This document shows positions 26 through 26,414 of a DNA stretch of 64,000 nt, piece by piece. Source of the DNA: Nemertoderma westbladi (Eukaryota > Animalia > Xenacoelomorpha); assembly GCA_032718475.1 (NCBI GenBank), contig JAUCBJ010002168.1, forward strand, positions 1-64,000. The letters run 5' to 3'. A program made the position numbers and the translations under genes. Position 1 is the first letter of the stretch. Each line of letters opens with the position of its first letter. The notes beneath the pieces are model-generated. The model had not been told where the DNA came from. It was given only the letters and a program-made list of their open reading frames with translations, and searched no databases.

Positions 26-752
26 CTAGTCTTAATCACTTAATTTAACTGCACTAATCATATTGTTTGTACTGTTATTTACCGTCAGTTATTAATTGTA
101 TCTATTTGTTGATGAAACATTGCCCTTTGGAGAATACGGATAAATCACCCAAAAATTCCCAATTTTCTTGATACACTACAGGTTAGAGAGACAGGCTATA
201 TATAACAATTGCGATTTATATTAATGTGGTGTGTATTGAATCTAATGTTATTTAGCAGACCCTACATGAGTCAATTGCTGCTCTCTTTATGTGTGATCAA
301 ATATACTGACGGTCGGCAGAATAGTGTGCATGATTGTGATTGGTAACAAAGTATTTCCTAAAGAATGCGCCTTATACTTTAATCATAAGCGGTATCGTTG
401 CGTTTAGTATAAGTCCTAGTTCTGTTTAAATAGATAGAGCGCCACGTCCCAAAGGAACTGTTAATATTTCCCGAAAGCCAATAATATCTGTCAGAAATTA
501 ATTATTAACGATCTATCGAATAATACAGTAGGTTTACACTGCAACCTTACACTGCAATAATAAAATTTAAGCATCCGAATTCAGCCTCCCGGGTGTAGAT
601 CCATCGGGTGAATGATCGCGCATGGGCTGACTTCGGCTAATGTTTTGTTTATTAGCATAAAATATTGTCGTATGCTAAAGGTGTTTTAATTAACTAAAAG
701 ACATATAAATTTTGGCGGGTTAAACTGCTAAAGGTCTTCAAAAGCGCGAACA
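26..752 (+). repeat. 5' LTR (3' portion only)
   Basis: Matches 17466-18192 at offset 17440 with one mismatch seen (C118 vs T17558). Ends ...AAAAGCGCGAACA. Bases 1-25 do not match the 3' LTR. Confidence 0.92.
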
Positions 753-2971: not shown

Positions 2972-4618
2972 ATGTCTGACACTCAGAAAAATCTGTCAGA
3001 CAGTCTAATCGATACAACCATCTGTGACACAGATAGGAGTGTAGAGCGATTAAGAAAAGAGTTCAGTTCACCTCCTACTGTAAGAAAGGTCATCCCTCCA
3101 GTAGTATCAGACCCTAGGCTAATCCACCATAGGTCCATCATAGGCACTCGGGCCCAGGTCAAACGGAACCAAGAGGCAGCTGTCCTATCGCAGCAACATC
3201 TTGGTCACGAACCTAGTTCCCAACGAACCGATAGCTCCAGTAGTTCAGATACTGTAGAGCTCACCCCCGAACGTGGAGTGCAGATGACTACTACAGTCTA
3301 TTCGGACCCCCTTCTCACCCTTCCTGCTGCAGTGTTAACTACCATATTCATTGCGGTGGAGGAACATCAAGCCGACTGGGCGAGAAATAAGCGAGCAACC
3401 CAAGATAATTATGCGGGATACGCCAGGGAAGAATTGATGGCTATTGTCGAGTCACAATGGAACTTTCCCGGACTCGGACTCCCGTTGGATCTGTCCGAGG
3501 CTACTTGGGAAGATATACACAGGATGAGAGTGGCGAAAGATACAATGGATCCAGCTGTTTGGAAGAGGTCAGCAGCAGGATATGTGCAGGGATTCTTCGG
3601 CTCCTTGGAGCGATTGGAAGAACAACTGTTTCGACAACCCCAAGGACCTCAAGAGCAGGAAGAGCTGCTATACCAAGTACGCGAAAGAACCCTACGCATT
3701 CGACTAATCCTATCAGCCTTTGAGGAAACTTCCAAAAGAAGACAGGACACGTCGCTGCAGGTTGCTGTCAAAACCTGGTTACATCGGGTAGGTCTCAAAG
3801 TACAGGAAACGGCCCAGTGGAAATCCCAGCTGGCTGAGAGATCAACCTATGAAGAACAAACTGATGTCACCCTTTCTCAGGCGGAAAGCGAAGAGACCGC
3901 CGAGAAACCGCGAACTAGAGACACTATCGACATTTATTTGTCTGACTATCAGCGATTCCTAGGAGACGAAGAGTTGAGGAGACGGCTGTCTGAACTTTCC
4001 CCTAATAGTGAAGGAACTAAGCTTGTGTTGGACTCAATCGATGCGGAAATGTTAGCTGCAAACCAAGCTGAATTTGATGAAAAACTCCGCCTCACTAGAG
4101 TCCGAGAAGAACAAGTAAAGAAAGAACGGATAGAGAAAAGAAAGGAGGCAGCAGCAGCGGCGGCAGAAGCAGAAGCCGAAAGAAAGGCGGCAGAAGCAAA
4201 AGCCGAAAGAAAAGCGGCAGAAGCCGAAGCCGAAAGAAAGGCGGCAGAAGCAGAAGCAGAAAGAAAGGTAGCAGTGGTAGAAGCAGAACGGAGAGCTTCT
4301 GAGGAGACTATCCAACTGGAGTTGGAAAATCTGCAAGAGACGCAAGACAGCATAAATAAACAGTTCACTGCTAATCAAATGCAGATGATGAGAAAATCTA
4401 CTCCCAAGCGCCAGGGATACACATCCTCGGAGGAAGGCGAGACCACCGATCCTGAAGGCGGAGGAAATAGATCTCATCTAAGCAGGCGTAGAAAAACATC
4501 TTACCGTCGCAAATTGCCTGATTTGCCCCCAGCTGTTAGAAGACAGCTAGCTAGCACAGACTTGAGTAGTATAGAACCTACAGACCAAATTATTAGGTCA
4601 AAAGACTCCCTACTATAG
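2972..4618 (+). CDS. gag: BEL gag N-terminal part (coiled coil, AEAEAERKA repeats); first segment of a frameshifted gag-pol
   Basis: 548-aa ORF after the leader. The next frame is open from 4597 and overlaps its end, implying a -1 shift near tcaaaagac (~4600-4606). Confidence 0.75.
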   Translation: MSDTQKNLSDSLIDTTICDTDRSVERLRKEFSSPPTVRKVIPPVVSDPRLIHHRSIIGTRAQVKRNQEAAVLSQQHLGHEPSSQRTDSSSSSDTVELTPERGVQMTTTVYSDPLLTLPAAVLTTIFIAVEEHQADWARNKRATQDNYAGYAREELMAIVESQWNFPGLGLPLDLSEATWEDIHRMRVAKDTMDPAVWKRSAAGYVQGFFGSLERLEEQLFRQPQGPQEQEELLYQVRERTLRIRLILSAFEETSKRRQDTSLQVAVKTWLHRVGLKVQETAQWKSQLAERSTYEEQTDVTLSQAESEETAEKPRTRDTIDIYLSDYQRFLGDEELRRRLSELSPNSEGTKLVLDSIDAEMLAANQAEFDEKLRLTRVREEQVKKERIEKRKEAAAAAAEAEAERKAAEAKAERKAAEAEAERKAAEAEAERKVAVVEAERRASEETIQLELENLQETQDSINKQFTANQMQMMRKSTPKRQGYTSSEEGETTDPEGGGNRSHLSRRRKTSYRRKLPDLPPAVRRQLASTDLSSIEPTDQIIRSKDSLL

Positions 4619-5325
4619 TTGATGAGCCTGAAATAATTAGGCCTGTTGTTCCCAAAGTCACCCCTGTATTAGAGACCCCTGTACTTCCAGAGCTTAACTC
4701 TAAATTCCCTTTACATAGTACTACACTCCCTGTACCCAGTAGAACAGTCCAAGAGAATATCCCTGTCCGGATAGCAGAGAGAGAAATCAATGATTTGTCT
4801 CCCGTCGTCCCGCGTCAGCCCGCTACTATGTTGGCGACTCCCGCTTCGGCGGTTGAGTGGGTAGAGGAGGGATGGCGGGGGATGAATCTCCTGCTCGGAC
4901 AGATGCAGGAGACTGTCCACCAGCTTAAGGGAACGGTAAGGGAAAGTAGAGCAGAGTTGCAAGAAGTGCAGCAAAGTATCGCACTGGAACGCGACAAATT
5001 AGTCAATATACAAAAGGGCATACCAATACCCCCTGTAACATTGTGTCAACCTGTTAGGTCTGAAGTATTACATGCGCAAGGTGTGGAGCCTACACGCATC
5101 TATACTGCTAGTGAAGTTGAAACTCCTATAGCAAACCCTATTAAGGGTAATTATAGACCTGTTATTAATGATATTCCCTATAGACCTGATAATGATCCGA
5201 GAAATTTATATACCGATAATTCGATATTAAATAACACGATGGCCCAAGAAAGCTTTACGCGTCAGATGGCTAGAACAGAAGCCCGCCAAGCGGTCAAAGT
5301 GGGGATGCAAATTCAATGGGGATGA
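4597..5325 (+). CDS. gag: BEL gag middle segment (Pro-rich plus short coiled coil)
   Basis: Frame open 4597-5325. It joins the next frame at ~5305-5310, where KFNGDEMKWLPF (BEL gag DUF1759-type motif) begins upstream of the 5327 ATG. Confidence 0.7.
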   Translation, partial: VKRLPTIVDEPEIIRPVVPKVTPVLETPVLPELNSKFPLHSTTLPVPSRTVQENIPVRIAEREINDLSPVVPRQPATMLATPASAVEWVEEGWRGMNLLLGQMQETVHQLKGTVRESRAELQEVQQSIALERDKLVNIQKGIPIPPVTLCQPVRSEVLHAQGVEPTRIYTASEVETPIANPIKGNYRPVINDIPYRPDNDPRNLYTDNSILNNTMAQESFTRQMARTEARQAVKVGMQIQWG

Positions 5326-5326
5326 G

Positions 5327-8300
5327 ATGAAATGGTTACCTTTCAACGAATATTACAAAGATAGCATACAGAACTCTGTACTATCTAACGGAGAGAAACT
5401 TAGATTCCTCATCAAGTGTTTGGAAGGACCTCCCAAGTTAATGGCGTTAAAGTTTATTGGACATCCAGAAGGATTAAGACAAGTTTGGGATACATTAAAC
5501 ATCAGGTATGGTAACAAGGATAACATAGCTAAGTATTTGTATGCAAAATTAGTAGCCCCCCGACACTTCCTTAGTAGTGGGATTATAGAGTTTTCCGATG
5601 AAATTCAAGAGATCTGTAGACAACTGGACTGGTTAGGTAAGTCGCATGAATATCAGAGTTCCATGGTTATTAGAGCCGTAGTCTCTACTTTACCAAAAGG
5701 TGGAGTATGTACACGCTGGGACAAGAAAGTGTTGTACATGAATGAACAACAACGACGAAGTCCTACCATGGCTGATCTCATGTCTTTCTTAGATGGTGAA
5801 GTCAAACTACAACTCATCAAGCAGTCCAGAGAGAAAACATCGGAAAATAAGGTAAGTGAGAAACCCACTTCTAGGAGAAGAGTAACACCGGTGTGTTACA
5901 CTGACGACGGCGAAAGCCAAGCTTCCCAAGAAGAGGACAGCGGGAAAGATACAGACCGATCTTATTATGTTGACAAAACATCAAAGGACGTAAGTAAATA
6001 CAAGGCTCGAAACAACGATAGGAGAGAACAGGTTGCCAAGACCCCTCCTCAGTCTCCTAACAGAATGCACCGAAGAAAACCCGAAGAAAAAACTAGAGTG
6101 CATCAAGTTAATCAAGGTAAAGTGAGTAACATTAAACCTAACTGTGCGCTGTGCGACGGGACCCACCGTTTGAGTGCGTGTGCTGAATTTCTAAGGAAAT
6201 CCCTTGTAGACAGACGTACAGTCGTGTGGGACAAGCGGTTATGCTATAATTGCCTCAGACCAGGACATCAACGGCGAACCTGTTACTCAGACATAAAGTG
6301 TGCAAAGTGTGGTGCGAAACATCACATCTTGTTACACAGTGAGTTCGAACGAGACAAACAGAGTCAGGTAAGTGAGCCCGAACTACATGTCCAATTTAGT
6401 GACGTAAATGACACAGATCAAGAGTCTGAGATGGAAGGATTCTATACTGACGAATTCTCCGACGCCAATGAATCCTGTTATCTAATAAACACCGCGGTGT
6501 ATCGAGCACTTACTTACGAAAAGGACATCAACGAGGAGTTTCCCCCTACTACTTTTACCAAACAATCATCTTGGAAAGCTCCAACTTCCAACGTAGGAAT
6601 CAGAGAATTTCCTGTAGTGCAGGTAAGAGTTCACGGTCTTAACAAAAGTTACATAGTGAACGCCCTCCTGGACTCCGGCAGCACAGGAACATTCATCGAT
6701 CAAGAACTAGCCGAAGATATCTTTGCTGGACAACCCAAGTTCCGGACTAAATTGAATATGTCAGGAATTATGCAGGTTTGGAAATCTACCCTGACGGCAG
6801 ATTACTATGTAGGTGTGTTGTCCACCCCCCAGGATAAGTTAGGAACACAAGGTGTAAGGTCAGTAAAAATGGTGGCTATAAAGAACTTCGCTACGACCCA
6901 AGCAGACCTTTATAATTGGGACGAGGATGAGAGCATCCAACATCTTAAGATACCTCGATTCCAGACAGATTATCCTGGAGTGCAAATACTCATCGGCCAA
7001 AACGCGCACGAAGCGCTTGAGACATTGGAGAAACGGCCTGCTCAACCACAGCCACTGCAAACCTATGCGGTAAGAACTAGAGTAGGTTGGTACTTTACTG
7101 GCCCTTCCCGTAGAACTCTAGAAGAGAGAATGCCCCACGAACAAATATATCAGGTAAGTGATTGGGAAGAGGAAAGCAGTGAGGTGGACGAACTAACTGA
7201 GGGAACACCATACTCCTCAGATAATGACGACATCTACCAACTCTTCGATGAAGAGAACACAATGGACCTACTCACCGAAAACCAAACTTGGAAAAACCAA
7301 GCGAACCTATGTCAACTGATTCGCCCAACGGAATCCATTATTTATAATGACGAACTTAATGACGAGGTAGAGCGCTACAACGCTAGAACTCGGGACAAAC
7401 TCGCCGTACGATTCTTTACCCAAGAATTAGTAGAACCCAATTCATACGACAAAGCCCTGTCGATAGAAGAAGAAAGAGCCAAGCAAATCCAGGAAACAAC
7501 CACACGTTTTTTAAAAGATCAAGGTAGATATGAAATCGGACTACCCTTCCGAAAACGTGAACCCAGATTTATAAATAACAGACCCTTGGCTGAGAAAAGA
7601 ATCAATCAATTACATCGACGTCTTACGGCAAACGCTTCAGCTAAGGAAATGTACCAAACTCAGTTGAAGAAATTTATCACAAAGGGATATGCGGAGCGAG
7701 TACCGGAAGGAACTCCAATAACTGAGAGAACGTATTACTTAACACATCATTACGTTCCCAAACCCGGCAAACCCAACGAAGTACGAGTCGTATTCGATGG
7801 CTCCGCCCTATATATGGGCCAATCCCTCAATTCCGAGTTGTTACCAGGACCCAACTTACTCCAATCTTTGTTGGGAATACTTTTAAGGTTAAGACAATAT
7901 TCCATCGCGTTCGCCTCCGATATAGAAGGAATGTTCTTACAAGTCAAGGCGCTGGATAGAGATAGAGACAGCCTGAGATTTCTGTGGTGGCCTGAAGGAG
8001 ACCTCAACCAGAAACCGGTGGAGTACTGGATGACCATCCAGGCTTTTGGGATCATATCTAGCCCTTCCAACGCCTGCTCCGTGGTGCGAACTACTGCGAA
8101 TGACAATCGAGACTCCTTCTCAAAGGAAGTGATAGACAACATAAAACGCAATATATATATGGACGACAATTTAAGGTCCCTTCCATCAGTAGAAGAAGCC
8201 ATAGCTGTCGCGAAAGGAACGGTAGAGTGTTTGAAAAGAGGTGGATTTCGACTGACGAAATTCACTAGCAACTCCCGTGAGTTTCTGGAAGCCATACCGG

Positions 8301-11041
8301 TAGAAGACCGAGGAACGAAAGACCTAGACTTAATAAAGGACGACCTTCCGGAAACCAAGACGCTAGGCTTGAAGTGGGACACTGAAAGAGACATCCTGTT
8401 TTTTCAGTTAAAACAGCGAGATAATCCAGTTCGAACCAAACGGATTTGTTTAAGTATCCTGAGCACTTATTTCGACCCATTGGGATTTATTAGCCCAGTT
8501 ATCTTGATTGCTCGGAGTTTAGTACAACAGATGTGGCTTGAAAACCACTCATGGGACGATCCGCTTAAGGGAGAACTTTTGAAGAAATGGATGAAATGGG
8601 AAGATTCTCTACCTGCCATCGAGAACTTTATAATTTTCCATGCATATTTTGGCCATGTTCTCCCTACGTATTCCTATCAACTCCATGTATTTGGAGATGC
8701 CAGCGATATGGGAATCGGTATAGTGGCATACCTGCGAGTCGAAACTCCGGATGGAATCAAAGTTGCCTTGGTTACATCTAAAGCATTGATTAACAACAAG
8801 CTTAAGGTTCCTCGGGCGGAGTTAAAAGCAGCTTTATACGCTACAGCTATCGGCCGGAATGTAACAGAACAGATCGATTATACACTGGAGAAAACTGTTT
8901 ATTGGACCGACGCTTTACTTGTATTGGAATATATAACGAATGAAGTCTGTCAGTTCAGCGTCTTTGTTACTAACAGAGTAGCCATTATTCTTAGTCGCAC
9001 AACGATAGATCAATGGAGACATTGCCCTGGTACGATTAACCCAGCTGACATCGCCTCCAGAGGAGCAACTCCACAGGAACTGATAGATACCCCTGACTGG
9101 TTGGGTGGACCCGATTTCCTGAGCAAGGAAGAGGATGAATGGCCTCCTCACCTTACTACGGCTGAGATTAGACAAGCCAAGGGAGCGGAGAAAGTCAAAT
9201 CCAAAACTCGGACAAGTAAATCGAAGTTATTTAAACCGACAATCGATCTATCTGTATTACATATTGCCGAAAACGATACTTCGGATCCACAATTTCTCGC
9301 CGTAAACAAGTCTGTTGTGGAAATTAGAGACAGAGATTGGAAATCTGGAATACCAGACGTCTCGCAAGGAATCTCACCCCTGCTGCAGAGAGCACTGCAT
9401 CATTACAGTTCCTGGAATCGTCTCTGTAAAGCCGTCACCTACTTAAAGAGATGTTTTCACCATCACTACTCCAGGACGCAGAACACTAATGATCCTGCTC
9501 CAGTGACATCTGCGCAAGTTCATGTTATTAAAGATCTACCTAAGTACAAGATATCAGACCGGTTTCTAAAAGAGAAGATCAGTTACCAGGAGCATGAAGA
9601 AACTAATAAGCAGCTACTGAGACTCCTGCAATGCTATGAGGATTCCGATAGGTATTTTCTGTTGTTGAGAAATCCGCAGATGCGCTTAAGGGATCGCTTC
9701 TCTAGCACATTGATAGATGGGTTAATACGTGTTGGAGGAAGGCTTACCAACGCCCCATTATCCTTTGATACTAAATTTCCTATACTCATTAGTAATCTTG
9801 AAGTACAAATCAAGATGATTGTAGATGTTCACAGTAAACTGTATCCTGCTGGTAGAGAACGAGTTCTTAGCGAAATTCGAACCCGCTATTATTTTCATAA
9901 ACCACGTAGAGCTCTGAATCAAGTTCTTAGGAACTGCATACCTTGTAGGAAAGTATTCAGTAGGCCTTTAACACAGCGAGAGGCAGAATTACCTAGGGAA
10001 CGAGTAAGCTTTTATGAACCACCCTTTACTAATACTGGTGTGGATTTATTTGGCCCTATTGAAGTGTATCGTGCTAGAACTATAATCAAGAGATGGTGTG
10101 TAATCTTTGTCTGCATGACTTGTAGAGCTATCCATCTCGATATGGTGAACGATCTATCTACTATCAGCTTCGTCTTATGTTTACGACGACAGATCGCTCG
10201 TTTCGGAACTAGCAACACGATGAGATCCGATAAGGGAACGAACTTCATTGGTGCCAACAACGAAATTCAGGCTTACGTAAAGGACTGGAATCAAAGACAG
10301 GTGGACGACCAGCTACGGATAACGGCGTCTAGCTGGACCTTTAACGCCGCCGACGCCCCTTGGTGGGGAGGAAGTTGGGAGAGATTAATTCGAAGTGTCA
10401 AGACCGCATTTCACTTTATAGTGCCGTGCCGCGCATATCTCACCGACGAACTTCTGCGGACGTTAATGGAAGAAATCGCTGCCTATCTTAACGAGAGACC
10501 GCTTATGCCAGTCTCATCGAGTCTCGACTCCCTGGAAGCGCTAACACCCGCGCACTTCCTACTTAAGAAACCTGTAGCCATGCTCCCACAATCCGAGATT
10601 GCCGATGGAGATGAATACTGTCGTCGAACTTGGCAGCTTATGCAGTTGCTATCCCGTCGTTTCGCTGACCATTTTGAGAAACATTATCTGCCCACGCTAC
10701 AACTTCGAACTAAGTGGTTTGCGCAGCAGGAAAATGTCAACGCCGGAGACATGGTCCTTATTGTAGATCCGGACCTTCCGCGTAGACGGTGGCAGATCGG
10801 TCGTATCATCGAGACGCACATCTCGGAGGATGGTCTAGTGCGCTCAGTAGAACTCGTCGTAATGCGGCGTAACTTCAAGAAACCAGGTATAATCTTTGAA
10901 ACGCAACAACTCAATCGCCCAGTTGGTCGTTTATGTTTGCTGGAAAGAGACCGGGAACTCTCCGGAAACTATGGAAGGCAAGAAACCCTTCCCACGACCA
11001 CCTCCCTAATACCTCAAACATCTAGGGGCTCTTCAACGTAG
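5327..11041 (+). CDS. pol: BEL/Pao gag-pol polyprotein (DUF1759-like, zinc knuckles, aspartic protease, RT, RNase H, integrase)
   Basis: CALCDGTHRLSAC / CYNCLRPGHQRRTC / CAKCGAKHHILLH; ALLDSGS; RVVFDGS, IYMDD; FGDAS, PRAEL, YWTD, NPADIASRG; GVDLFGP, RSDKGTNF, WWGGSWERLIR. Confidence 0.96.
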   Translation: MKWLPFNEYYKDSIQNSVLSNGEKLRFLIKCLEGPPKLMALKFIGHPEGLRQVWDTLNIRYGNKDNIAKYLYAKLVAPRHFLSSGIIEFSDEIQEICRQLDWLGKSHEYQSSMVIRAVVSTLPKGGVCTRWDKKVLYMNEQQRRSPTMADLMSFLDGEVKLQLIKQSREKTSENKVSEKPTSRRRVTPVCYTDDGESQASQEEDSGKDTDRSYYVDKTSKDVSKYKARNNDRREQVAKTPPQSPNRMHRRKPEEKTRVHQVNQGKVSNIKPNCALCDGTHRLSACAEFLRKSLVDRRTVVWDKRLCYNCLRPGHQRRTCYSDIKCAKCGAKHHILLHSEFERDKQSQVSEPELHVQFSDVNDTDQESEMEGFYTDEFSDANESCYLINTAVYRALTYEKDINEEFPPTTFTKQSSWKAPTSNVGIREFPVVQVRVHGLNKSYIVNALLDSGSTGTFIDQELAEDIFAGQPKFRTKLNMSGIMQVWKSTLTADYYVGVLSTPQDKLGTQGVRSVKMVAIKNFATTQADLYNWDEDESIQHLKIPRFQTDYPGVQILIGQNAHEALETLEKRPAQPQPLQTYAVRTRVGWYFTGPSRRTLEERMPHEQIYQVSDWEEESSEVDELTEGTPYSSDNDDIYQLFDEENTMDLLTENQTWKNQANLCQLIRPTESIIYNDELNDEVERYNARTRDKLAVRFFTQELVEPNSYDKALSIEEERAKQIQETTTRFLKDQGRYEIGLPFRKREPRFINNRPLAEKRINQLHRRLTANASAKEMYQTQLKKFITKGYAERVPEGTPITERTYYLTHHYVPKPGKPNEVRVVFDGSALYMGQSLNSELLPGPNLLQSLLGILLRLRQYSIAFASDIEGMFLQVKALDRDRDSLRFLWWPEGDLNQKPVEYWMTIQAFGIISSPSNACSVVRTTANDNRDSFSKEVIDNIKRNIYMDDNLRSLPSVEEAIAVAKGTVECLKRGGFRLTKFTSNSREFLEAIPVEDRGTKDLDLIKDDLPETKTLGLKWDTERDILFFQLKQRDNPVRTKRICLSILSTYFDPLGFISPVILIARSLVQQMWLENHSWDDPLKGELLKKWMKWEDSLPAIENFIIFHAYFGHVLPTYSYQLHVFGDASDMGIGIVAYLRVETPDGIKVALVTSKALINNKLKVPRAELKAALYATAIGRNVTEQIDYTLEKTVYWTDALLVLEYITNEVCQFSVFVTNRVAIILSRTTIDQWRHCPGTINPADIASRGATPQELIDTPDWLGGPDFLSKEEDEWPPHLTTAEIRQAKGAEKVKSKTRTSKSKLFKPTIDLSVLHIAENDTSDPQFLAVNKSVVEIRDRDWKSGIPDVSQGISPLLQRALHHYSSWNRLCKAVTYLKRCFHHHYSRTQNTNDPAPVTSAQVHVIKDLPKYKISDRFLKEKISYQEHEETNKQLLRLLQCYEDSDRYFLLLRNPQMRLRDRFSSTLIDGLIRVGGRLTNAPLSFDTKFPILISNLEVQIKMIVDVHSKLYPAGRERVLSEIRTRYYFHKPRRALNQVLRNCIPCRKVFSRPLTQREAELPRERVSFYEPPFTNTGVDLFGPIEVYRARTIIKRWCVIFVCMTCRAIHLDMVNDLSTISFVLCLRRQIARFGTSNTMRSDKGTNFIGANNEIQAYVKDWNQRQVDDQLRITASSWTFNAADAPWWGGSWERLIRSVKTAFHFIVPCRAYLTDELLRTLMEEIAAYLNERPLMPVSSSLDSLEALTPAHFLLKKPVAMLPQSEIADGDEYCRRTWQLMQLLSRRFADHFEKHYLPTLQLRTKWFAQQENVNAGDMVLIVDPDLPRRRWQIGRIIETHISEDGLVRSVELVVMRRNFKKPGIIFETQQLNRPVGRLCLLERDRELSGNYGRQETLPTTTSLIPQTSRGSST

Positions 11042-11570
11042 TACGTCTGGAGTGGGTGTATGTCTATATTATTTTATCTATTTTTATTACATTTTATATG
11101 TAAATGTTATTGTACGTTATTATAATCGTTTTTATTTAATTTTATTTAGTAAAATGTTATTTTAGAATATTTAGTAAATTAGTGCAATATATTAGTGTTT
11201 ATTACGTACTTAATTACTTATAATATATTTAGTGCGACGGCAAGAAATAATTATTTTTCTCTTTCCTTACTGTCCGTATTATATTATAAATGCGAGACTA
11301 TAGTAAGATGACATGTCAGTACTTATTAAAGTACAATAAAGCCACTACTATATTTAAGTATTATTGGTAGGCAGAGTATTAGGAATGCAAAGTTCAGATC
11401 CTCGTGTCTCGGCTAAACCAAGCTCTGGGTAGACCTTGGAAACGACTTGCCTCTTCACACTGACATTGCTTCGTGCGATATTGCTCTTCTACCTTATATT
11501 AAATAATACATATAGTAGCGTGATGTCCCTATAACAGTAGCGTAAAACGCAAATAAATCTGTTAAACCTT

Positions 11571-11842
11571 TTGACCATCTGTAATTCTAGTCGATTAAGA
11601 TATCGTGGCACCCACCGATATGCTTGAAAGACAAATTCTAGAATCAATGGTTAACGTCCCCAGACAAGTTCTGGAATAAATCGGTGCCCATCTTAAATAT
11701 TAATTTAATATTTATTAAAATCTGTAAAATTCAGATCCGTTAACAATTCTAGTCGATTAAGATATCGTAGCTCTTACCGATACTCTTAAAAGATAAATTT
11801 CATAGAATTAAGGATCCTATGTCCCCAGACCTGCTCTGGAAT
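11571..11842 (+). ncRNA. duplicated structured RNA motif (two ~110-nt copies) in the pol-cargo spacer
   Basis: Copies at ~11571-11688 and ~11734-11842 share AATTCTAGTCGATTAAGATATCGT and fold into the same multi-stem hairpin plus a CCAGA-N5-TCTGG hairpin, with compensatory changes. Confidence 0.6.
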
Positions 11843-12468
11843 CAAATTGTGTCAATTTTAACATCAAATAATAAAATTCACGGGAATAAATTTAAATTCA
11901 TACTTTAAATGAATTTCATAAATTGTCGTTTTGTGCAATTTATAACATTCCCAAAATTCCATTAATTAATAGATCACGGGAGCGGAGATTCATTCTATTG
12001 AGTGTATTAGAGTGCGAGAATCTCCAACATATAGTCAATAGCCGATAAAATTTATAAAATCATGCATAAAGAGGATATTGACAATTAAAGAATTACTATT
12101 AAATAGCATCCCAGATCTGTATGCATGAGAATTACCCTAATTCTACCGCTAGTTTTCCATAATGTCACCATGGCAACACCCACGCTAGAATTAGAAGCAA
12201 GTTAAAGGAATAATAAAAAGCTTGCCCCATTACGTAGCATAAGAGTATACATAGCGCACTATTAGTATCCAAGGATACATAGTAATAACGTGACATTCTG
12301 GAAGACACTGACTAACGGACAAATGGCATGCATGTGTGCAGTAAGTAATGATTGTATGGAATTTGTGCGTTTATAGGTGAATGTTACTACTAAAGTGTGT
12401 TTACAGTAGCTAATCGCAATTGTAAAGTAGCCCTAACTCTACCGAGATAACCTCAAGTGGATTCAAGC

Positions 12469-12590
12469 CTTTGGGACGGACAGTGGTGGGACTTGTGCCG
12501 GGTATCGTTGTCGTGCTGTTGCTACATGTTGGCGTAAACACTGCGACAACGGTACATCGGCGCTGAGAAACCCACTGTCCGGGGGCAAAG
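12469..12590 (+). ncRNA. long GC-rich stem-loop upstream of the cargo ORF
   Basis: CGGACAGTGG (12477-86) pairs with CCACTGTCCG (12572-81). Inner GTGCCG/CGGCGC and GTATCGTTGTCGT/GCGACAACGGTAC pair using G-U on the + strand. Confidence 0.6.
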
Positions 12591-12662
12591 CCTAGTAGGC
12601 AGCGACGCCCGCTTGCCTAAAATATTAACTCATATTGATATTAATAAACTCAGATAGCAGAT

Positions 12663-14855
12663 ATGACGGAATTGATAGAAGATGACCTTGGTATTAGAGA
12701 GCGATATACTCTACCTTTACAAGCATTTGTGGATAGCTTGATACGCGGTGAAGCCGATCCGACTATTACGGAGGACGATGGTCGTTATATCGAACCGCCG
12801 ATGTCCCAGGAACAACTTACGCGTGAATTGGACTATAGAAAATTCACCGCTCGCTATACGAATCGTAATGGTACGTATATGGACTTCTTAACTACCGGCC
12901 ATCCTACCGATTTACATGATACTGAAGATGTAGACACCGAAAGGGAAATGGTTTTATTTAAATATCATGCCCAGCGGAATCGTAATGATAAACCGAGAAT
13001 AGAACACGAGAACTCTATTCGCAACCTACTCGACAGAGAAAACGTTGAAGAACCCGATAAGCGTATCAACTTCAACGACTACTTGGAATTTTTGAGAGAA
13101 ACCTATCTCAATATTGCCAGTCAACAGAACCTAGAGACTCGATATCCTCAAGGTATGCATCACGATCCCATGGTAGAACTCAAACGACTCTATTTCACCA
13201 TGATGTATCTTACCGCAGATCGTCCACTGCCTGTTGTCCCGGACAGCTTTGAACAAATGGAAGAGTATTGCAAAACTGGAGAACGATCACCCGCGTTTCC
13301 TCTGCAGGACGTACGTCTTTGGTATTATTGTGACTCATGTCCTAGACCTAACCAGCAAACGGAAAGACATAAACATCCGCGGAGACGTTGTGCTAAACAC
13401 AGTTTTACGCGTTATACTTACGGGAGTTTCGAGCGAAACCTGTTCGACGTATCACCTACGATCGCCCGTCTAAAACGATCGCTAAATAAACCCATGATCA
13501 GAGTTCCGGAATACTCGGTCAGGCCTCCCCATTTCCCCGTGAGACCTCAAACTCTTGATCCTAACAGTATCACTGATCCTCCCGAGTTATATTCACTGTT
13601 CAAAGATTTGGTGTTACCCGAGCAGTTAATCGGTGGGGTTCCAGCGGTAGGTTCGTTAGATATTCGACCATCCTATTTAACCGGATTGGGACGCGGGCAT
13701 CTAACATCGCCATTTAATCCTTACAACCGGCCAGGATTAACTCCGATACAACCTGCCACGGAGGTCGAGGAGAGTGTCATCAGAAACGCTCTAGACGCCA
13801 TCCGACAGAAAATCGGAAAGGGAACCCAGGATTTTCTAGAGAAACGTAAGTTACAGCAGCAGGTCCAATCGGTTAAAGAGTTAGCCTTGCCGCAGTTTGA
13901 TAGAGAAATCCAAAACCTCGAAGAGGACATCGAGCTTGGACGTACGTATTCTCTACAGGAGTTTCTAGAAGAACGCTTACAGAAACAAGCGGAGGAAAAT
14001 CAACTAGAGGAGAAACATACGGAAATGGATGAGAGAGAAGAAGCCGCTTTAGCCCAACCCGAAGCTCAGATACTCATAACTGATCTCTACTCTAAAACCG
14101 TCCGTCATCCCTCGATGGTTCCGCATTTCGGAGACAAACTTTTCGCAAAGATACAACCCCAACCGGTTGATATCAGCATAAGATCACAAAATCTTATCGC
14201 TGACGCTCCTATGTTACAGCGTCCGCCAATTGAGGCCGCTCGAGTTGACGGTATACTCGTTGAACCTCCGGACAATCGAGCGGATCTTGTCCGTCGTATG
14301 GTACACGATGTCAACATACGCGCTAGACCTTTACAGAACTCTTTTTATGGAATTAAAGATCACCCTTATTACGTTAATCTGACTCAATATTATATGGTAA
14401 AACCAGAAGATCCGACGCATAATTTAAAGTTTCTACCACTAATAAATCCTCTGGACATTGTCGAACTCGAACAATTGCAAAAACATCTGGATCAGTTAGT
14501 AAAGGTAAACTCATTTCGAAAACCATATAACGTTTCTCGAATAGAGAAGGATACAGTACCCCCTTATAATCTCGATGGATTTATTAAAACTCGATTAGTC
14601 CATTGGAATCTAGACGTATTATTCGAGGAGGAGAAAATACAAAGATATGGAAATGTGGAGACGTATACCACTCGATACATGAAGTATAGTGATCTCCCTG
14701 ACGCTAATCAATGCGCCACCTTGTGGCATCCGGTAGGGATGACCCTCGAGAACGCCACCAAGGAGTGGAATGAAACTCTTAATATCATTGAGATGTATGG
14801 CGTTGTTACTTACGAACGACGAATAACGAAGGTAGCGTTCCAATCGGAGAATTAG
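12663..14855 (+). CDS. BEL cargo ORF, N-terminal part; unknown protein with a CxxC..H..C motif and coiled coil
   Basis: 730-aa intact ORF inside the LTRs with no signal peptide or TM segment visible. Probably continues into 14867-16924 through a -1 shift near 14815. Confidence 0.8.
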   Translation: MTELIEDDLGIRERYTLPLQAFVDSLIRGEADPTITEDDGRYIEPPMSQEQLTRELDYRKFTARYTNRNGTYMDFLTTGHPTDLHDTEDVDTEREMVLFKYHAQRNRNDKPRIEHENSIRNLLDRENVEEPDKRINFNDYLEFLRETYLNIASQQNLETRYPQGMHHDPMVELKRLYFTMMYLTADRPLPVVPDSFEQMEEYCKTGERSPAFPLQDVRLWYYCDSCPRPNQQTERHKHPRRRCAKHSFTRYTYGSFERNLFDVSPTIARLKRSLNKPMIRVPEYSVRPPHFPVRPQTLDPNSITDPPELYSLFKDLVLPEQLIGGVPAVGSLDIRPSYLTGLGRGHLTSPFNPYNRPGLTPIQPATEVEESVIRNALDAIRQKIGKGTQDFLEKRKLQQQVQSVKELALPQFDREIQNLEEDIELGRTYSLQEFLEERLQKQAEENQLEEKHTEMDEREEAALAQPEAQILITDLYSKTVRHPSMVPHFGDKLFAKIQPQPVDISIRSQNLIADAPMLQRPPIEAARVDGILVEPPDNRADLVRRMVHDVNIRARPLQNSFYGIKDHPYYVNLTQYYMVKPEDPTHNLKFLPLINPLDIVELEQLQKHLDQLVKVNSFRKPYNVSRIEKDTVPPYNLDGFIKTRLVHWNLDVLFEEEKIQRYGNVETYTTRYMKYSDLPDANQCATLWHPVGMTLENATKEWNETLNIIEMYGVVTYERRITKVAFQSEN

Positions 14856-14866
14856 GAACTACGCGC

Positions 14867-16924
14867 ATGATACACATACGCGGATTAGCTGGTTCCACTC
14901 ACGTGTTTACGCGAGCGTGTTCCGACGTGATCGATTATTCCTTTGAAACTCTCACCGAAACGCAAAAGAATCTCCGACATGGACAATTCGAACTCGCGCA
15001 GCGTTACGTCATTGACACCAAACGCAAACCGGCCATGGGTATCGATGGATCGATGTTACCCCAGCCCGTTCTCGAGATGTTATTCAACGAAAGAATCATT
15101 AAAATCGGCTCAGCTGTTTACGGAGATCTCCAAAACGACTTTCGGAATATGGAGAATATCCCCTATCCTTTCGTGGATACTCAGCTGATAGCTCCTTGGG
15201 CCGAAGGCCGAGGTTTCTTTCGCACCATGTATGCTAATGCGGCTAGCGACATTACAAAGGTGCAACGAACTTCCATCGGACATCTTGCCTTTCAGGAATA
15301 CGGGTGGAATTTCAAGGTCGGAAATCCCATCAACTATCAACAAGTATATGGAGACCATTATTCTCGATTATACTTTGACGGACCGTTGACCGCACCTGGC
15401 GCCGTGTATAGCTTCATGAGTGTTCCACTCCGTCCCTCCTTAGCTATCTACACGATCTTCGAAAACACCGCACTTTCTGGTTGGCTAGCCGATGTGTGCA
15501 GTCGCACTATACGCGCCCATCCATTAATCCTTGGGACCAAACTCGCTAAGCTAGATGAACATAATAAATTCATCCGCTTTGAATGTTTCCGACGGTTTTT
15601 AACCCCGTTTCGCAACGTGGATAGCCAATTCAAAGAACGCGCTTTGACCAAGCTCAGCTTAAGAGACTCGGCTGCGGAGAAGTTAGATAGCGCTGGATTT
15701 GCTATTTTCAAAGACATTTGTATAATAAACCTGCACTCCTCGGTTATCCAAAGACCTCGGATCCCCACCGGTTATTCTGTCGTGGAAATTCAGACGATAG
15801 GTCCACTTGAGGAGACAGCCACGCCTACCTCAACTATACAAGGGGAAGACGAACCCATATGTTTAGAATCTGAAGAGATTCAGCCCCCCACGTCTCGGAG
15901 TAGCGATAGCGACTACATATTGGAATGGTATCAAGGTCCCCAGTGTCTTACTGCGTATGATTATCGCCATGCCAATTATGTTTCTAGACAACGTTGTCGG
16001 CTGTGCGCATCGAGAGACCATATTACGTCTATGGACACCAACGATCTTTGTTCCTATTTCCATGAGCAACCGTCGATGGAAATCTATTGTGCATATTGTC
16101 GGCTTAATAATTTGCACATTTTTGCTGTCTGCCCCCAATTTATGACTCAATGCCATCATTGTCAATTAAAAGGACACGCCAGCTTTGATTGTCCCTTTAA
16201 CCATGATTTAGAGAGCGTAGATGAAATGATTGTACTACGTTATATCAGAGCTTGGGAAGCGAACGCTGATTTACATTGTGATTCACGCCATCGCTATTAC
16301 CCTGGACGCGCTTACGAAGGAGTTTATGCGTTCCATCCTTATTTGTTTGCCTCCGTCGAGCAGAAATCACGCCTATCAAGTTATGAACTACTGAAGCGCG
16401 TTGGAGAATGTATTTCAACCAAATATGTACGCAAATTTCTCAGGAGCATTAATCCGAGTGACATCAATTCTTACAACTTAATAAACTTTATCCGTCAAGA
16501 TCCGGCCTATGGAGACTTATTTGTCAACTCACACCCCGAGTTACAGGAAGTATATCGACGGCCTTACGAGTACAGAGCCCACGAACGCGAGTTGGAAAGA
16601 ACCATTAAACCAAGGAAGTTTCTAACTGCCTATGGTCCACCCACGGCCCTCGTTCAGACCACTCGTAAAGGACCCGTAAGAGCGGCTGTCTTGAAACGAG
16701 CTCTCAGAGCCGTTAGACCCCTCTCCCCGGACGTTGATGTCAATCAACCCGGTACTTCTACCGGCGGATATACCGATCGTAATCCCATACCTTCTGATAC
16801 AATCATATTGCACCCTTCACCCAGGAGTTATAGCCCTCCTTGTAAAGTGGCTCGCCCCAAAGAGAAAAGGACTCTTGCTAGCTTTAAAAAACTGCGTAAA
16901 CGCCGTCCGCGCAAGAAAGACTAA
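14867..16924 (+). CDS. BEL cargo ORF, C-terminal part; degenerate DEDDy (WRN/EXD-type) 3'-5' exonuclease-like domain, three CCHC knuckles, basic tail
   Basis: LPQPVLEMLFNERIIKIGSAVYGDL...FVDTQLIA...SIGHLA resembles the WRN-exo core. Knuckles CRLCASRDH..C, CAYCRLNNLHIFAVC, CHHCQLKGHASFDC. Tail KKLRKRRPRKKD. Frame is open from 14792. Confidence 0.7.
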   Translation: MIHIRGLAGSTHVFTRACSDVIDYSFETLTETQKNLRHGQFELAQRYVIDTKRKPAMGIDGSMLPQPVLEMLFNERIIKIGSAVYGDLQNDFRNMENIPYPFVDTQLIAPWAEGRGFFRTMYANAASDITKVQRTSIGHLAFQEYGWNFKVGNPINYQQVYGDHYSRLYFDGPLTAPGAVYSFMSVPLRPSLAIYTIFENTALSGWLADVCSRTIRAHPLILGTKLAKLDEHNKFIRFECFRRFLTPFRNVDSQFKERALTKLSLRDSAAEKLDSAGFAIFKDICIINLHSSVIQRPRIPTGYSVVEIQTIGPLEETATPTSTIQGEDEPICLESEEIQPPTSRSSDSDYILEWYQGPQCLTAYDYRHANYVSRQRCRLCASRDHITSMDTNDLCSYFHEQPSMEIYCAYCRLNNLHIFAVCPQFMTQCHHCQLKGHASFDCPFNHDLESVDEMIVLRYIRAWEANADLHCDSRHRYYPGRAYEGVYAFHPYLFASVEQKSRLSSYELLKRVGECISTKYVRKFLRSINPSDINSYNLINFIRQDPAYGDLFVNSHPELQEVYRRPYEYRAHERELERTIKPRKFLTAYGPPTALVQTTRKGPVRAAVLKRALRAVRPLSPDVDVNQPGTSTGGYTDRNPIPSDTIILHPSPRSYSPPCKVARPKEKRTLASFKKLRKRRPRKKD

Positions 16925-16994
16925 CTGTTTAGAGTATTTTTATATTTTAGAAACTGTGATTTTGTATATTTTATAGACTTAAATCCCATTTTCT

Positions 16995-17002
16995 GGGAGC
17001 GG
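16995..17002 (+). promoter_or_regulatory. polypurine-tract-like plus-strand primer site
   Basis: GGGAGCGG directly abutting the TGT LTR start. Confidence 0.6.
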
Positions 17003-18192
17003 TGTAAAAGCTTTTGTGGGATAACTGATTCGTTTGCCTTGCCAACCAGTTCCCCCCCTGTCGCTGAATACTCTAAAAAGGGATACCTAGCTAGAATAGT
17101 GTAAGCTACCAGCTTATTGGCTGATGTGCTGTACGGAAGTATCTGGGCTCCGTTTAATCGGCCAACCAGCTTAGGGAGGTTGCCTCAGCCCTGCTGTCCT
17201 TATCTGCCAATAGAATTTGAGTGGGCGTTGATTTCGACCTATCCCAGAGCTACTGAACTGAATTTCCTATCTCTATGCTCATCCTCTGTGTTGGACGGGA
17301 GCTTTGGGGAATAAGGGTAGTTGGTATCCTTGTATAGGGAGCTAGTCATATGATTCTTTATATGATTCTGTTGTTATGTTCCCATTTTTCGCCATAACAC
17401 CGGCTTTTGGGAAGAACTCCAGTAAAACTGCTTAAATTATCGAAAGTATAACTGTTACCTAGTCACTAGTCTTAATCACTTAATTTAACTGCACTAATCA
17501 TATTGTTTGTACTGTTATTTACCGTCAGTTATTAATTGTATCTATTTGTTGATGAAATATTGCCCTTTGGAGAATACGGATAAATCACCCAAAAATTCCC
17601 AATTTTCTTGATACACTACAGGTTAGAGAGACAGGCTATATATAACAATTGCGATTTATATTAATGTGGTGTGTATTGAATCTAATGTTATTTAGCAGAC
17701 CCTACATGAGTCAATTGCTGCTCTCTTTATGTGTGATCAAATATACTGACGGTCGGCAGAATAGTGTGCATGATTGTGATTGGTAACAAAGTATTTCCTA
17801 AAGAATGCGCCTTATACTTTAATCATAAGCGGTATCGTTGCGTTTAGTATAAGTCCTAGTTCTGTTTAAATAGATAGAGCGCCACGTCCCAAAGGAACTG
17901 TTAATATTTCCCGAAAGCCAATAATATCTGTCAGAAATTAATTATTAACGATCTATCGAATAATACAGTAGGTTTACACTGCAACCTTACACTGCAATAA
18001 TAAAATTTAAGCATCCGAATTCAGCCTCCCGGGTGTAGATCCATCGGGTGAATGATCGCGCATGGGCTGACTTCGGCTAATGTTTTGTTTATTAGCATAA
18101 AATATTGTCGTATGCTAAAGGTGTTTTAATTAACTAAAAGACATATAAATTTTGGCGGGTTAAACTGCTAAAGGTCTTCAAAAGCGCGAACA
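17003..18192 (+). repeat. 3' LTR (~1190 bp, TG...CA)
   Basis: Starts TGTAAAAGCTTTT directly after purine-rich GGGAGCGG and ends AAAAGCGCGAACA (imperfect terminal inverted repeat). The right boundary is where identity with the 5' copy ends. Confidence 0.85.
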
Positions 18193-19479
18193 ACAAGGCA
18201 AGGCAGCAAGGTACCGTAATGCAATTTTTAAGGCATCTCCGAGCAGGCAGCAGGCTTAAGACACTTTTCGAGCACGCCACATTGGCACGATTTTATTGTA
18301 AAGCGCGCCGCCGGATTAATCCGGCGCAAAGTGTATAGGCCTAGGCCTACTGTAGTCTAAGTATTCCAGTCTGGCCTCTGGGGGGGGGGTATTGGCAGAA
18401 ACCTAAAAGTAGCTGTAATTATAGAATCAACCTTCAGATTCATCTGAAATTTGATAGGCGTGGCCTATCTGCCTATGGCAGTACCGGTATGGGATAGGCA
18501 TTGCTGAATAAATAAATTCTGCTCACAGACACACTTTTAAAGTTCCTCTTTCTGCCGCTAGGGTCGAATGACTAGGCAGCTAGGTCCACTAATTGTACCT
18601 CTACGCAAAGGATCATCTAGACTTACGTGCTGCGCGAAGTCCCCACAAGACATTAGAGACAAACTGACAGATCTGCCACAACCAAGTAAAGCAAACTCCA
18701 AAATGCGGTAATAGGCCTATCACATTTGAGGCACAGTGGTAAGAACTTTTTTGATCGATTCCCCTATTGCCTATGGCTATGCCTGTGGCGAACCACTAAT
18801 ACTTTTTTTTTCAAATTTTGATGATTGATTCCCCTATGCCCATGGCGAACCACTTATACTTTTTTCAAAAGTTTATTGATTCAGCTACGTCCACACACAG
18901 AAAACCACTCCATTTCAAAGTGTATTGATTCCTCTATGCCCTTATTAAGAAATCGAATTATTTGAAAGTTTAGTTATTAACGTTTTATTTATTTATTAAT
19001 AGTAGTAATAATAACAATACTTGATGAGCATACATTGCAGTGTAATATTGCAGTGCAGTACCGGTATTGCATATAATTAACTAATTAACTAAAACTGCTA
19101 ATTAACTACTGAAACTGAACTATGTATTAATAAATGGCACAAACTGCAAATTGATTTATTATTGTACAAAATGCCACAATTCCTAAAAATATGCACTGGA
19201 ATATAATAATTGCTTAATAATAATTTGAGGAAGACTTAAAAAATCGTACTAAAAAAACTATTATTATGAATTTATTAATTATCTATTACATGAATAATAC
19301 TTACTGACTTAATATAAAATACCAAAACAAATGACTGTAAAGTAACTCACAACATAATTATAATGCAAGATATATTATTTAAAAATATATCATCAAAAAT
19401 ATTCATCATCAGTGCTGGCAGAGAGATTGCCGCTTCTGCATCTGGTGCTTGTGCATCTCCACATGACTGCATGAGCAGT

Positions 19480-20777: not shown

Positions 20778-22710
20778 TTATTCACTCCATGAGGCTGCCA
20801 AAGTACAAGAATATGCACTAAGCATTGCAGAAAGCAATTTCATGCAAAGTGGAGGCGATTTTGTTCTAGTGTCAAGCTTTGGGGAACCAATGAAACACCT
20901 CCAATGTTATATAGTGTCTGGTTGGAGATGTGTGCATTGTACTTGGCACAATGAACCCGGCGTAGCATTCTTGTGAATGTGCCATCCAGAGATTTGGTGT
21001 CCTCAGCAGTTAGAGCCCAGCATGGACTCCCATATAGGAGTACTGGAACTACTGCTGCTCTAAATAATTGGACCTTAAGTTTCCGATTAATTCTCGTTGA
21101 CTTCCAAATCCTGGTAAGCCTGTTCAAGGCTGCCCATGCCTTTCCCTTATGTATTCGAAGGTCCTCACCTGACTTCCGGATCCATGATCCCAGGTAACAG
21201 AAGTCATCCACATGCTCAAGCATACCATCTTTTGAGCTTATGCTCATCCGATCAGAGACTTGCTGAGGACTTTCAAAGTTAACTGTCAAAATTTTGGTCT
21301 TTCTGGAGTTAATAAAAAGACCAACACTAGAAGCAGCATGTTCTAATGAGCTGAGGAGCCATTGGGCTCCCTCTAGTGATTCTGAGAGTACTCCTAAGTC
21401 ATCAGCAAAGTCTAGATCAGTTAGGTACTTGGCAGGATTTCCTCGACTTCTGGAGCCAGTAGGTGGAGTTATCATCACCCCATCATCATTATGATGATCT
21501 AAGGACATACGTAGAACATAGTCAACAACTATTATGATCAAGAATGGTGCAAGTGTGTCTCCCTGGAGGACGCCCCATAACACTTCAAATGGTTCTCTGT
21601 CACCGTCAACAGTAGACACAAATGTTGTCAAACCATCGTATACTGATCTGATTGCTGCAATAATTTCATCAGGAATCCCATATAATGAAAGTATGCTGAA
21701 CATACGTGAGCGAGAGACTGAATCAAAGGCCTTGAAGAAGTCAACAAAGATAACAGCCAGATGCCTGTCTTTCTTTTTTGATAACTCTTCAATTATCCTT
21801 CTAAGTGCCAAAATGGGCTCCATGGTCCCATGACCTTTACGGAACCCATTCTGATTTCCACGGAGCAGTCTCTCAATGGGATCCCTGATGCGATTTAATA
21901 GAATTCTATTGTATATCTTTGCAGCAATCGAGATCAATGAGATTTCCCGAAAATAACCATAGAGTGTTTGGTTGCCCTTCTTGGGAACTGGCATCAACTT
22001 ATTTGTTTTCATTTCTTGTGGGACTCTTGTTGTTCGGTACATGTCTACTATGATGGGATAGATGAGCTTTAAACACTCAGGTATTTTAAAGACCTAAGGG
22101 GGAACACCATCTACTCCACTGGCACGATCGGTCTTAATGCTCTTTGCAGCAGCCTTCACTTCTGCAAAGGAGATATCACCAATGGGAATATCTGAGAGTA
22201 CAGACTCAGACACTTTTACTTCTATAAAGTTATCATGCAATACCCTGTCATTATAGAGGAGCTTTTCAAGGTGGGCCTTCCAACCATTGATGCGATCGGC
22301 TGGTGATTCAGCCTTAACCTTGGTGGTTGGTTGGCTTTTTCGACAAGCAAGTAAGTTGATCGATCTCCATGCCTGGGATGATTGCCTGCTGTCGTCAGCA
22401 TCATTGATGGCATCAACCTGTTGGTATATTAGCTCCTGTAATAATTAACAGAGTACTGCCTGTTCAGGGACCTAGATGCAGCCTTAACTGGATTCTTGGC
22501 CGCTGTAGTCTGTTTGAGTCGGGACTCTTTCTGCGCCTTGTAGAGGTCATTTCGGCACTTCTGAATTTTGTTGTCAGTCCAGGGGGCCCGTTTCCTGTTT
22601 CGAGGATATACAGGAACTGTTTCTGAAGCTGCTAACTTAACTGCCTCTGTGAAGGCAGTATAGACCTCACAGTGATCTGCCTCCTCAGAGGCAAGAATTG
22701 GTGCAGAACA
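20778..22710 (-). mobile_element. RTE-clade non-LTR retrotransposon fragment (RT), decayed
   Basis: ORF 20840-22042: NQNGFR, VDFFKAFDSV, GVLQGDTLAPFL, LDFADD, LLYGSPCW. Upstream frames are broken by stops. Confidence 0.9.
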
Positions 22711-23531: not shown

Positions 23532-24065
23532 TGGCGACTCAAGTTTCGACGGATTATGTGACGTGACTGCGTGCGCCTCTCTGCTTAAACTATTCCTGAG
23601 AGAACTCCGAGCCGATTATACCCCCCTCTTTACAAGGTTACATTATTACCGTTTTTGAAGAACACATCAAAAGTAACACGGCAGGAGCAATTCTCGATGG
23701 GAAAATCCGCGATCTTCTGCAACGACTTCCTCCTGAAAACTACCGCGTTTTGAGGTATCTCGTGCAATTCCTCGTTGTAGTGGCTCACGAGCCTACCAAT
23801 AAAATGTCCTTCACTGCGCTCGGCATCGTTTTCGGGCCGAATTTATTCCGGGTGGGCGACGGAATCGACGGGCTATGGGAACAAGGGATCGCCAACCAAC
23901 TCACCCAGAAGTTCATCCAGGGATTCCCCGTGTTGTTCGAGCAGAAGGTTGCGTCGCGTCGCAGCGTTTACGATAACTGGTCCGGCGACGACAATCTCTC
24001 GTTCTACCCGATCGATTCAGACTCGGCGACGCCGGTTCACTCCAACGTGGATTCTCCTTTCGCCC
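23302..24065 (+). pseudogene. FAM13-type RhoGAP domain, intronless, frameshifted and 3'-truncated
   Basis: FGVSL...GLFRVN...ASLLKLFLREL, then after a shift at ~23607 (P)EPIIP...LPPENYRVLRYL...NKMSFTALGIVFGPNLF. Sequence turns AT-rich at ~24065. Confidence 0.8.
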
Positions 24066-26392: not shown

Positions 26393-26414
26393 ATTGACAT
26401 TGCACAACCTACTA

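Follow-up and report, generated by a model that had tools for sequence, protein, structure and literature searches.

A putative RNase D-like exonuclease gene with zinc fingers, carried behind pol by a BEL/Pao retrotransposon family of Nemertoderma westbladi

Exonuclease domains of the DEDDy type have been described in retrotransposons of bdelloid rotifers, where open reading frame 3 (ORF3) of the long terminal repeat (LTR) elements Juno and Vesta and of the Athena/Terminon elements encodes such a domain (PMC5408684); the rotifer ORF3s appear again in PMC6431247, PMC5718144 and PMC6338049. The second system of comparison is a host enzyme: TbRND, the mitochondrial RNase D of Trypanosoma brucei, trims the U-tails of guide RNAs and holds the U-rich strand with its fingers (PMC7797062). 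Here, we describe a cargo gene in a DNA stretch of 64,000 nucleotides from the xenacoelomorph Nemertoderma westbladi (GCA_032718475.1, contig JAUCBJ010002168.1, positions 1 to 64,000 of the forward strand), the whole of which we call the window. The gene lies between pol and the 3' LTR of a BEL/Pao retrotransposon and is broken in this copy. We read its product, with belief and doubt in about equal measure, as an RNase D-like accessory protein with three fingers that would trim RNA 3' ends and would be made from a spliced, LTR-driven mRNA. The parts of the gene are the following.

12663..14855, forward strand: 5' frame of the cargo gene (ORF A, 730 residues), with about 680 residues of no assigned family and then the putative start of the exonuclease domain, its last strand aligning with the ExoI motif of two remote homologs, P0001 and P0002
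14792..16924, forward strand: 3' frame of the cargo gene (ORF B, 710 codons; 685 residues from the ATG at 14867), with the putative remainder of the exonuclease, a linker, zinc fingers and a basic tail
14813..14824, forward strand: frame break within the ExoI motif, peculiar to this copy (in four of four runs, 70-100% of the contig depth here differs in length)
14700..15500, forward strand: putative DEDDy/RNase D-like 3'-5' exonuclease domain, with the ExoII Asp at about 15125, the ExoIII Tyr at 15449 and a Glu at 15461 (from TIGR01388, HHalign, ESM Atlas PF01612 and motif register)
15995..16192, forward strand: three Cys/His zinc fingers by pattern (one canonical CCHC, two variant), with a conserved helical cap behind them up to about 16340; the module is kept in P0001 and P0002
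16860..16921, forward strand: Lys/Arg-rich C-terminal tail, by its sequence possibly nuclear-localisation-like or RNA-binding

Both frames lie on the same strand between pol and the 3' LTR, and the open cargo reading frame spans about 4.2 kb and is intron-free; when the pol-to-LTR region was shuffled 300 times, no stop-free stretch exceeded 218 codons. The signal peptide and C-terminal transmembrane anchor of an env gene or fusogen are absent from both: the maximum hydropathy over 19 residues is 1.21 and 1.37 for the two frames, with no window above 1.6, neither N-terminus has a signal-like hydrophobic core, and Pfam gave no fusogen match for either frame. ORF A found no homolog or family match in Pfam, the TIGR family models or a word-based protein search, the last being a weak negative. 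It contains a charged, coil-like stretch near 13836-14050 and a Cys/His cluster at 13329-13400 (C-x2-C, then His and Cys residues) that may bind zinc. A first-pass annotation, made from the letters alone, had described two long frames here that are not env and have no signal peptide or transmembrane segment; their coordinates, lengths and the opening at 14792 are exactly as it gave them, and the motifs that it quoted from the fused frame are present at 14799-15466.

ORF A and ORF B are one gene, broken in this copy. Sister copies were studied through Logan contigs from public runs, six of which contain the region or part of it, with no RNA run among those listed; four runs from four studies (X1, X3, X4 and X5) were compared, and the cargo region, which the annotation had proposed to look for in sister copies, is present in the contigs of all four. 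Within 14500-15700, seven of seven length-difference rows fall at 14813-14824, that is, at the frame junction. The share of depth with this difference is 70-98% in X1, 70-100% in X3 and 100% in X4 and X5, where each event is summed once and the range depends on the position used as denominator. Because the sister contigs of all four runs differ in length exactly at the junction, a programmed frameshift does not explain the split, which is either a lesion of this copy alone or an error of its assembly; no slippery heptamer was found at the junction. The earlier idea that a single -1 shift fuses the frames was thus right about the single gene, but the split belongs to this copy and is not a feature of the family.

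Two unnamed ENA proteins, P0001 (648 residues, E=1.2e-6, 30% identical) and P0002 (575 residues, E=2.1e-4), were the only matches when ORF B was compared by phmmer with 1.84 billion protein representatives, among which no close host homolog was found. In each, as in ORF B, the nuclease-like region comes first and the fingers with their helical cap follow; the long N-terminal part is missing from both, and P0001 also has a basic run at its C-terminus. A profile built from these two proteins alone recovered ORF B among 667 stop-free stretches of the window, with E=4e-15 for the nuclease and 1.1e-6 for the fingers. The three proteins share a nuclease-plus-three-finger layout. No relative was found in viral contigs or JGI metagenomes, tblastn of P0002 against plasmids and of P0001 against phages gave nothing useful, and PHROGs gave no useful match; word-based searches, which are weak as negatives, returned nothing new for ORF B among longer proteins and P0001 alone for the three-sequence profile. 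As for the fingers, three were predicted as CCHC knuckles, and three Cys/His fingers are indeed present, but only the third has the canonical C-x2-C-x4-H-x4-C spacing and the first two are variant. The finger profile of the family matches HIV-1 nucleocapsid with E=6.5e-4. A duplication from the element's own gag fingers was considered separately and is unsupported (pairwise E=0.037).

The placement of the domain follows from several weak tests that all name the same superfamily. The first is the RNase D family model TIGR01388 (rnd), which ORF B matches with E=0.005. The second is HHalign, in which the three-sequence profile aligned to 80 enterobacterial RNase D sequences with a probability of 70%, E=4e-5 and a score of 39, whereas 30 column shuffles scored no higher than 20; the alignment is limited to 48 columns around ExoII. 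In the ESM Atlas, the top clusters for ORF B are PF01612 (0.90; 142/256 features), while P0002 falls to a Euglenozoa cluster (381 residues, 0.92, 194/256 features) in which 100% of the members have PF01612 and 61% have zf-CCHC; this cluster is taken to be the TbRND family. Among PDB sequences, the domain profile matched EXD2 (the best, E=0.51) and RNase D only, both non-significantly. The model of the P0001 domain gave a best Foldseek E of 0.17, and none of the rows is significant; by their titles, however, 40 of 44 are DEDD-domain proteins, including EXD2, Egalitarian, Exd1, TbRND (E=1.5-1.8), RICE, Nibbler, NrnC and proofreading polymerases. The DEDDy-type homology proposed in the first-pass annotation is thus supported by the rnd and HHalign matches, the PF01612 clusters and the motif register; the fold check that it advised recovered mostly DEDD-domain names and no significant match, with a model whose predicted local distance difference test (pLDDT) score was 39.

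Several points weigh against this assignment. The predicted models are poor, with pLDDT 31 for residues 1-300 of ORF B from a single sequence besides the 39 of the P0001 domain; the best VIA Z is 3.7, and a viral fold library was likewise without a clear match. Pfam gave no exonuclease match for ORF B and one of only E=0.2 for P0001, and the Atlas match of ORF B shares only 142 features. Moreover, every test is weak alone, and the tests share sequence signal. We regard the cargo domain as a well-supported, though unproven, DEDDy/RNase D homolog. The Atlas taxa for ORF B point to giant viruses as a possible source, which is only a lead, because the wide VIA search and the viral fold library gave no clear answer.

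The domain had earlier been suspected to be nuclease-dead because its ExoI and ExoIII acidic residues looked altered, a reading that our analysis does not support. ExoI looks altered because the lesion sits inside the motif: when the break is filled with X, the junction falls within ExoI in the alignment to P0001 and P0002, which both have D-x-E, and ORF B contains the motif's Glu. The ExoII Asp of ORF B is in register with RNase D and EXD2. The ExoIII register P-L-x6-Y-x3-acid is found in 80 of 80 RNase D sequences, and ORF B keeps its Tyr; the acid is Glu in the window copy and in P0001, and Asp in P0002, which has the full canonical set. The same pattern arises in 424 of 20,000 shuffles. 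Three of four positions are acidic and the fourth is unreadable here, unlike EXD1, which is without the acidic metal-ligand set (PMC4712191). The kept D-E-D-Y-E site thus argues for metal binding, and we infer that it would still cut. On the other side, the first ExoI acid is unreadable in this copy, the change from Asp to Glu in ExoIII may weaken or end catalysis, and kept acidic residues are no proof of activity, as the analogy of Egalitarian suggests, whose putative catalytic residues are dispensable for it (PMC13186709).

Because Egalitarian does not need these residues, the same gene and fold could serve without cutting, as an RNA adaptor or decoy like EXD1 or Egalitarian that would carry the RNA of the element to the germline nucleus or compete with host small-RNA factors. 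We consider this unlikely, though a contender to be taken seriously. The Glu in ExoIII, the dispensable residues of Egalitarian, the appearance of EXD2, Egalitarian and Exd1 among the top non-significant Foldseek rows, and the long N-terminal part with its charged, coil-like stretch together with the basic tail would all suit it. However, ORF B retains the ExoII Asp, the ExoIII Tyr and the ExoI Glu, P0001 has the ExoIII Glu as well at 30% identity while P0002 has the canonical set, and EXD1 itself has lost the acidic residues outright (PMC4712191).

The cargo ATG lies 1.6 kb 3' of the pol stop with 25 ATGs in between, and a separate mRNA is therefore likely needed. Two candidate splice sites were identified.

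176..188, forward strand: candidate splice donor in the LTR, exon end at 181 (same site at 17621 in the 3' LTR); the sole AG/GT-N-AG site in the LTR, with two X5 joints
12410..12446, forward strand: candidate splice acceptor for the cargo mRNA, AG at 12445-12446; X5 contig joints from the LTR donor in two sequence variants

The two joints, of different sequence and with depths of 1108 and 493, run from the LTR to about 12447 in X5. The acceptor AG is 216 bases upstream of the cargo ATG, with one ATG and one ORF of three codons in between. GT and AG ends are expected by chance at about 0.4% of joints, although the joint here was picked from many. This GT-AG joint suggests a spliced, LTR-driven subgenomic cargo mRNA, which would resemble the spliced subgenomic mRNAs of env genes; ORF3s are likewise typically expressed from spliced messages (PMC5408684). 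Nevertheless, the joint was seen in one run, among the 12 rows listed of 111, and the contigs carry no strand; X5 is guessed to be DNA, and the joint may be a deletion or a retrocopy. The search for a subgenomic transcript that had been advised thus produced the LTR-to-12447 joints, but from a single run of presumed DNA. Separately, an X5 contig omits 13025-15843, up to an AG, so that the first 121 codons run directly into the finger module; this contig is perhaps a deletion derivative or a nuclease-less splice form.

In the trimming role, the spliced LTR-driven mRNA would yield a protein of about 1,400 residues whose zinc fingers would grip single-stranded RNA while the RNase D-like domain would trim its 3' end. 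The analogy is with TbRND, from which the substrate and benefit are also drawn. The protein would strip host-added 3' tails from the RNA of the element, or shorten small RNAs aimed at the element, and more genomic RNA would survive for reverse transcription; the N-terminal 680 residues may, as a guess, be a scaffold or localisation module. A U-tail trimmer is a concrete candidate because uridylation restricts LINE-1 (PMC6191937). A further-reaching form of this proposal, which we hold only tentatively and think rather unlikely in full, is that the cargo is a TbRND-like counter-defence nuclease that removes host U-tails or trims silencing small RNAs, that it aided the high copy number, and that with P0001 and P0002 it forms an undescribed family, retroelements having converged on the design.

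A DNA substrate appears improbable. The domain would then trim or proofread cDNA ends or flaps in reverse transcription, with the fingers as a nucleocapsid-like chaperone. EXD2 is the best solved-structure match by both sequence and Foldseek (non-significant), some DEDDy enzymes act on DNA (PMC5408684), the fingers are similar to retroviral nucleocapsid, and the element has two polypurine-tract-like sites, all of which would fit; the closest architecture, TbRND, nevertheless acts on RNA tails (PMC7797062). In addition, a separately expressed protein of about 1,400 residues has no evident route into the particle. To our knowledge, most BEL/Pao elements replicate without such a gene, which also counts against a role on DNA.

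Whether the gene is maintained can be judged from the sister copies. The variants are the 40 best-supported of 226 substitutions in 14500-15700, so that common variants are favoured and the measure is not a formal dN/dS. In ORF B (14826-15700), 23 of the 28 listed variants are silent against an expected fraction of 0.30, calculated with a strong transition bias (p=2e-8), and pN/pS is about 0.09; the two wrong frames give 8/40 and 3/40 silent. For comparison, 17 of 23 listed gag-pol variants are silent (a count that leaves out the pol rows 9302, 9303, 11032, 11033 and 11041), and the pN/pS of the nuclease domain is as low as or lower than that of gag-pol. ORF A weakens the case for the gene as a whole, since only 6 of its 12 listed variants are silent (p=0.10, no significant selection); two further ORF A variants are both replacements, and one further ORF B variant is silent. 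The exonuclease part is thus shown to be under purifying selection, whereas this is not so established for the N-terminal part, and the anticipated dN/dS below one agrees with the low pN/pS of the nuclease domain of ORF B but is not shown for ORF A.

A captured host gene that is now a passenger in decay could account for the broken copy, for the X5 deletion from 13025 to 15843 that removes the nuclease and for the absence of established selection on ORF A; it is very improbable, however, given a pN/pS of about 0.09 that largely refutes it for the nuclease domain, the long open intron-free frame and the lack of a close host homolog among the representatives searched. It is scarcely credible that the frames encode separate proteins or that a programmed -1 shift regulates their fusion, for although the frames overlap, ORF B has its own ATG and a mildly stable fold lies 3' of the junction (z=-1.8), the sister contigs of all four runs differ in length there, the slippery heptamer is missing and the junction cuts the ExoI motif.

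The element that carries the trimming-protein candidate has the following further parts.

26..752, forward strand: 5' LTR, 3' part only (726/727 bases shared with 17466-18192; bases 1-25 unmatched)
2972..11041, forward strand: gag-pol of BEL/Pao type in three frames in this copy (2972-4618, 4597-5325, 5231-11041; from Pfam DUF1759, Asp_protease_2, Peptidase_A17, Integrase_H2C2 and DUF5641, and from the frames)
11049..11059, forward strand: polypurine-tract-like site, then TGT, just 3' of the pol stop (from sequence)
16995..18192, forward strand: polypurine-tract-like site and inferred full 3' LTR (17003-18192, TGT...ACA; from sequence, the 5' boundary inferred from the motif)

Its assignment to BEL/Pao is based on the Pfam scan matches of pol to Peptidase_A17, DUF1759 and DUF5641, and the pol domain order, protease, reverse transcriptase, RNase H and integrase, is of the Pao type, as in BEL/Pao (Belpaoviridae). 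Asp_protease_2 lies at 463-497, Peptidase_A17 at 1069-1227 (E=4e-34), Integrase_H2C2 at 1530-1575 and DUF5641 at 1800-1902; YMDD is visible among these domains, and RVT_1 itself is absent from the Pfam matches listed. Gag has DUF1759 (E=2.9e-12) and three Cys/His fingers (6143 and 6242 by pattern, the third by eye). No slippery heptamer was found at either gag-pol frame overlap; the three frames here and the split cargo indicate several small lesions in this copy or its assembly. Of the 727 bases of the direct repeats at 26-752 and 17466-18192, 726 are identical, so the insertion is young, as had been annotated. The 5' LTR has probably lost its 5' part. Judged by the purine tract with TGT at 16995-17005 and by the final ACA at 18192, the full 3' LTR would be about 1,190 bases long, of which the last 727 alone are kept in the 5' copy. 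No clear primer-binding site was seen downstream of the 5' LTR, and Rfam gave no match in 1-19000.

Each of the four compared runs covers 30 of 30 bins in 1-19000, with a great number of divergent contigs mapping there; the family is therefore both abundant and varied, and it includes the cargo region. Each of these runs also has internal pol deletions at 7230-9006 and 9195-10906, which suggests that non-autonomous derivatives of the family are common. The purine tracts after pol (11049-11059) and after the cargo (16995-17005) are similar, and each is then followed by TGTA; the former is a possible relic of an older LTR start, and the cargo cassette may have been inserted where an earlier 3' LTR began. 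The 5' leader (753-2971) is unusually long at 2.2 kb and holds a 289-base tandem repeat at 1087-1664 and a 38-base repeat at 819-907. About 780 gag codons lie 5' of DUF1759 (2972-5325), for which Pfam gave low-complexity matches only, and a 27-base repeat at 4159-4268 encodes an Ala/Glu/Lys-rich helix.

Elsewhere in the window, a copper monooxygenase frame of 599 codons lies at 46363-48162 on the forward strand (Cu2_monooxygen, E=3e-12) and is apparently intron-free. Probably another retroelement is found at 50257-53296 (forward), with DUF7047 and RNase H matches and a knuckle-like stretch near 50960, and there are reverse transcriptase fragments at 20840-22093 (reverse) and 25436-26392 (forward). 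A RhoGAP-domain frame at 23600-24163 (forward) has a flank repeated at 63090-64000, and a weak MATH-domain frame is at 34658-35596 (reverse). At 26410-29400, 2.8 kb lie between the arms of an 84-base inverted repeat built from 11-base units, possibly a non-autonomous DNA transposon.

Few enzymes used by animal retrotransposons against host RNA control are known. The present cargo adds a case from a different superfamily and an abundant family, with purifying selection, a hint of a spliced mRNA and intact natural homologs; therefore, retrotransposon-encoded RNA 3'-end nucleases and their targets become a directly testable question. The first-pass annotation knew DEDDy capture from rotifers and not from BEL/Pao, in agreement with PMC5408684 and with our search, in which no DEDDy cargo of a BEL/Pao element was found in the literature covered (including PMC8220671, PMC6338049, PMC6431247 and PMC5718144, and without Repbase, Dfam, supplements and most subscription papers).

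There are likenesses and differences to each of the known systems. In the slot after pol, the cargo resembles the BEL/Pao env genes (roo F-like, mosquito gB-like; PMC13524379), with which it also shares a probably spliced expression, but it is without their signal peptide, transmembrane segment and fusogen similarity. The domains of EXD2/WRN, Nibbler (mut-7), EXD1 and Egalitarian have the same ExoII and ExoIII motif spacing; none of their other domains is found in the cargo by Pfam, and EXD1 is without the acidic residues. As in TbRND, a DEDD/RNase D nuclease appears to be followed by a CCHC finger array in place of HRDC, although TbRND has four fingers (PMC7797062), whereas the cargo has three, two of them of variant spacing, and is on a transposon. 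This is a likeness of layout, not an established common origin of the fusion. From the rotifer ORF3s, the cargo differs first in its host element, which here is of the BEL/Pao type. The rotifer clades belong to the Gypsy group. Like rotifer ORF3, the cargo follows pol without being an env gene, has no transmembrane segment and encodes an RNase D-like DEDDy domain of putative function (PMC5408684). The second difference is the acidic set, which is DEED in rotifer ORF3 (PMC5408684), with an ExoII Asp and an ExoIII Glu at the end here. Its length of about 1,400 residues, three fingers and long N-terminus also set it apart by description. Finally, purifying selection is clear here, in a high-copy family, while the rotifer elements are low in copy number and the discussion of their ORF3 reports no significant departure from neutrality (PMC5408684). 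DEDDy cargo as such is thus already known from rotifer elements; new here, within the literature covered, is a DEDDy-like cargo in a BEL/Pao family.

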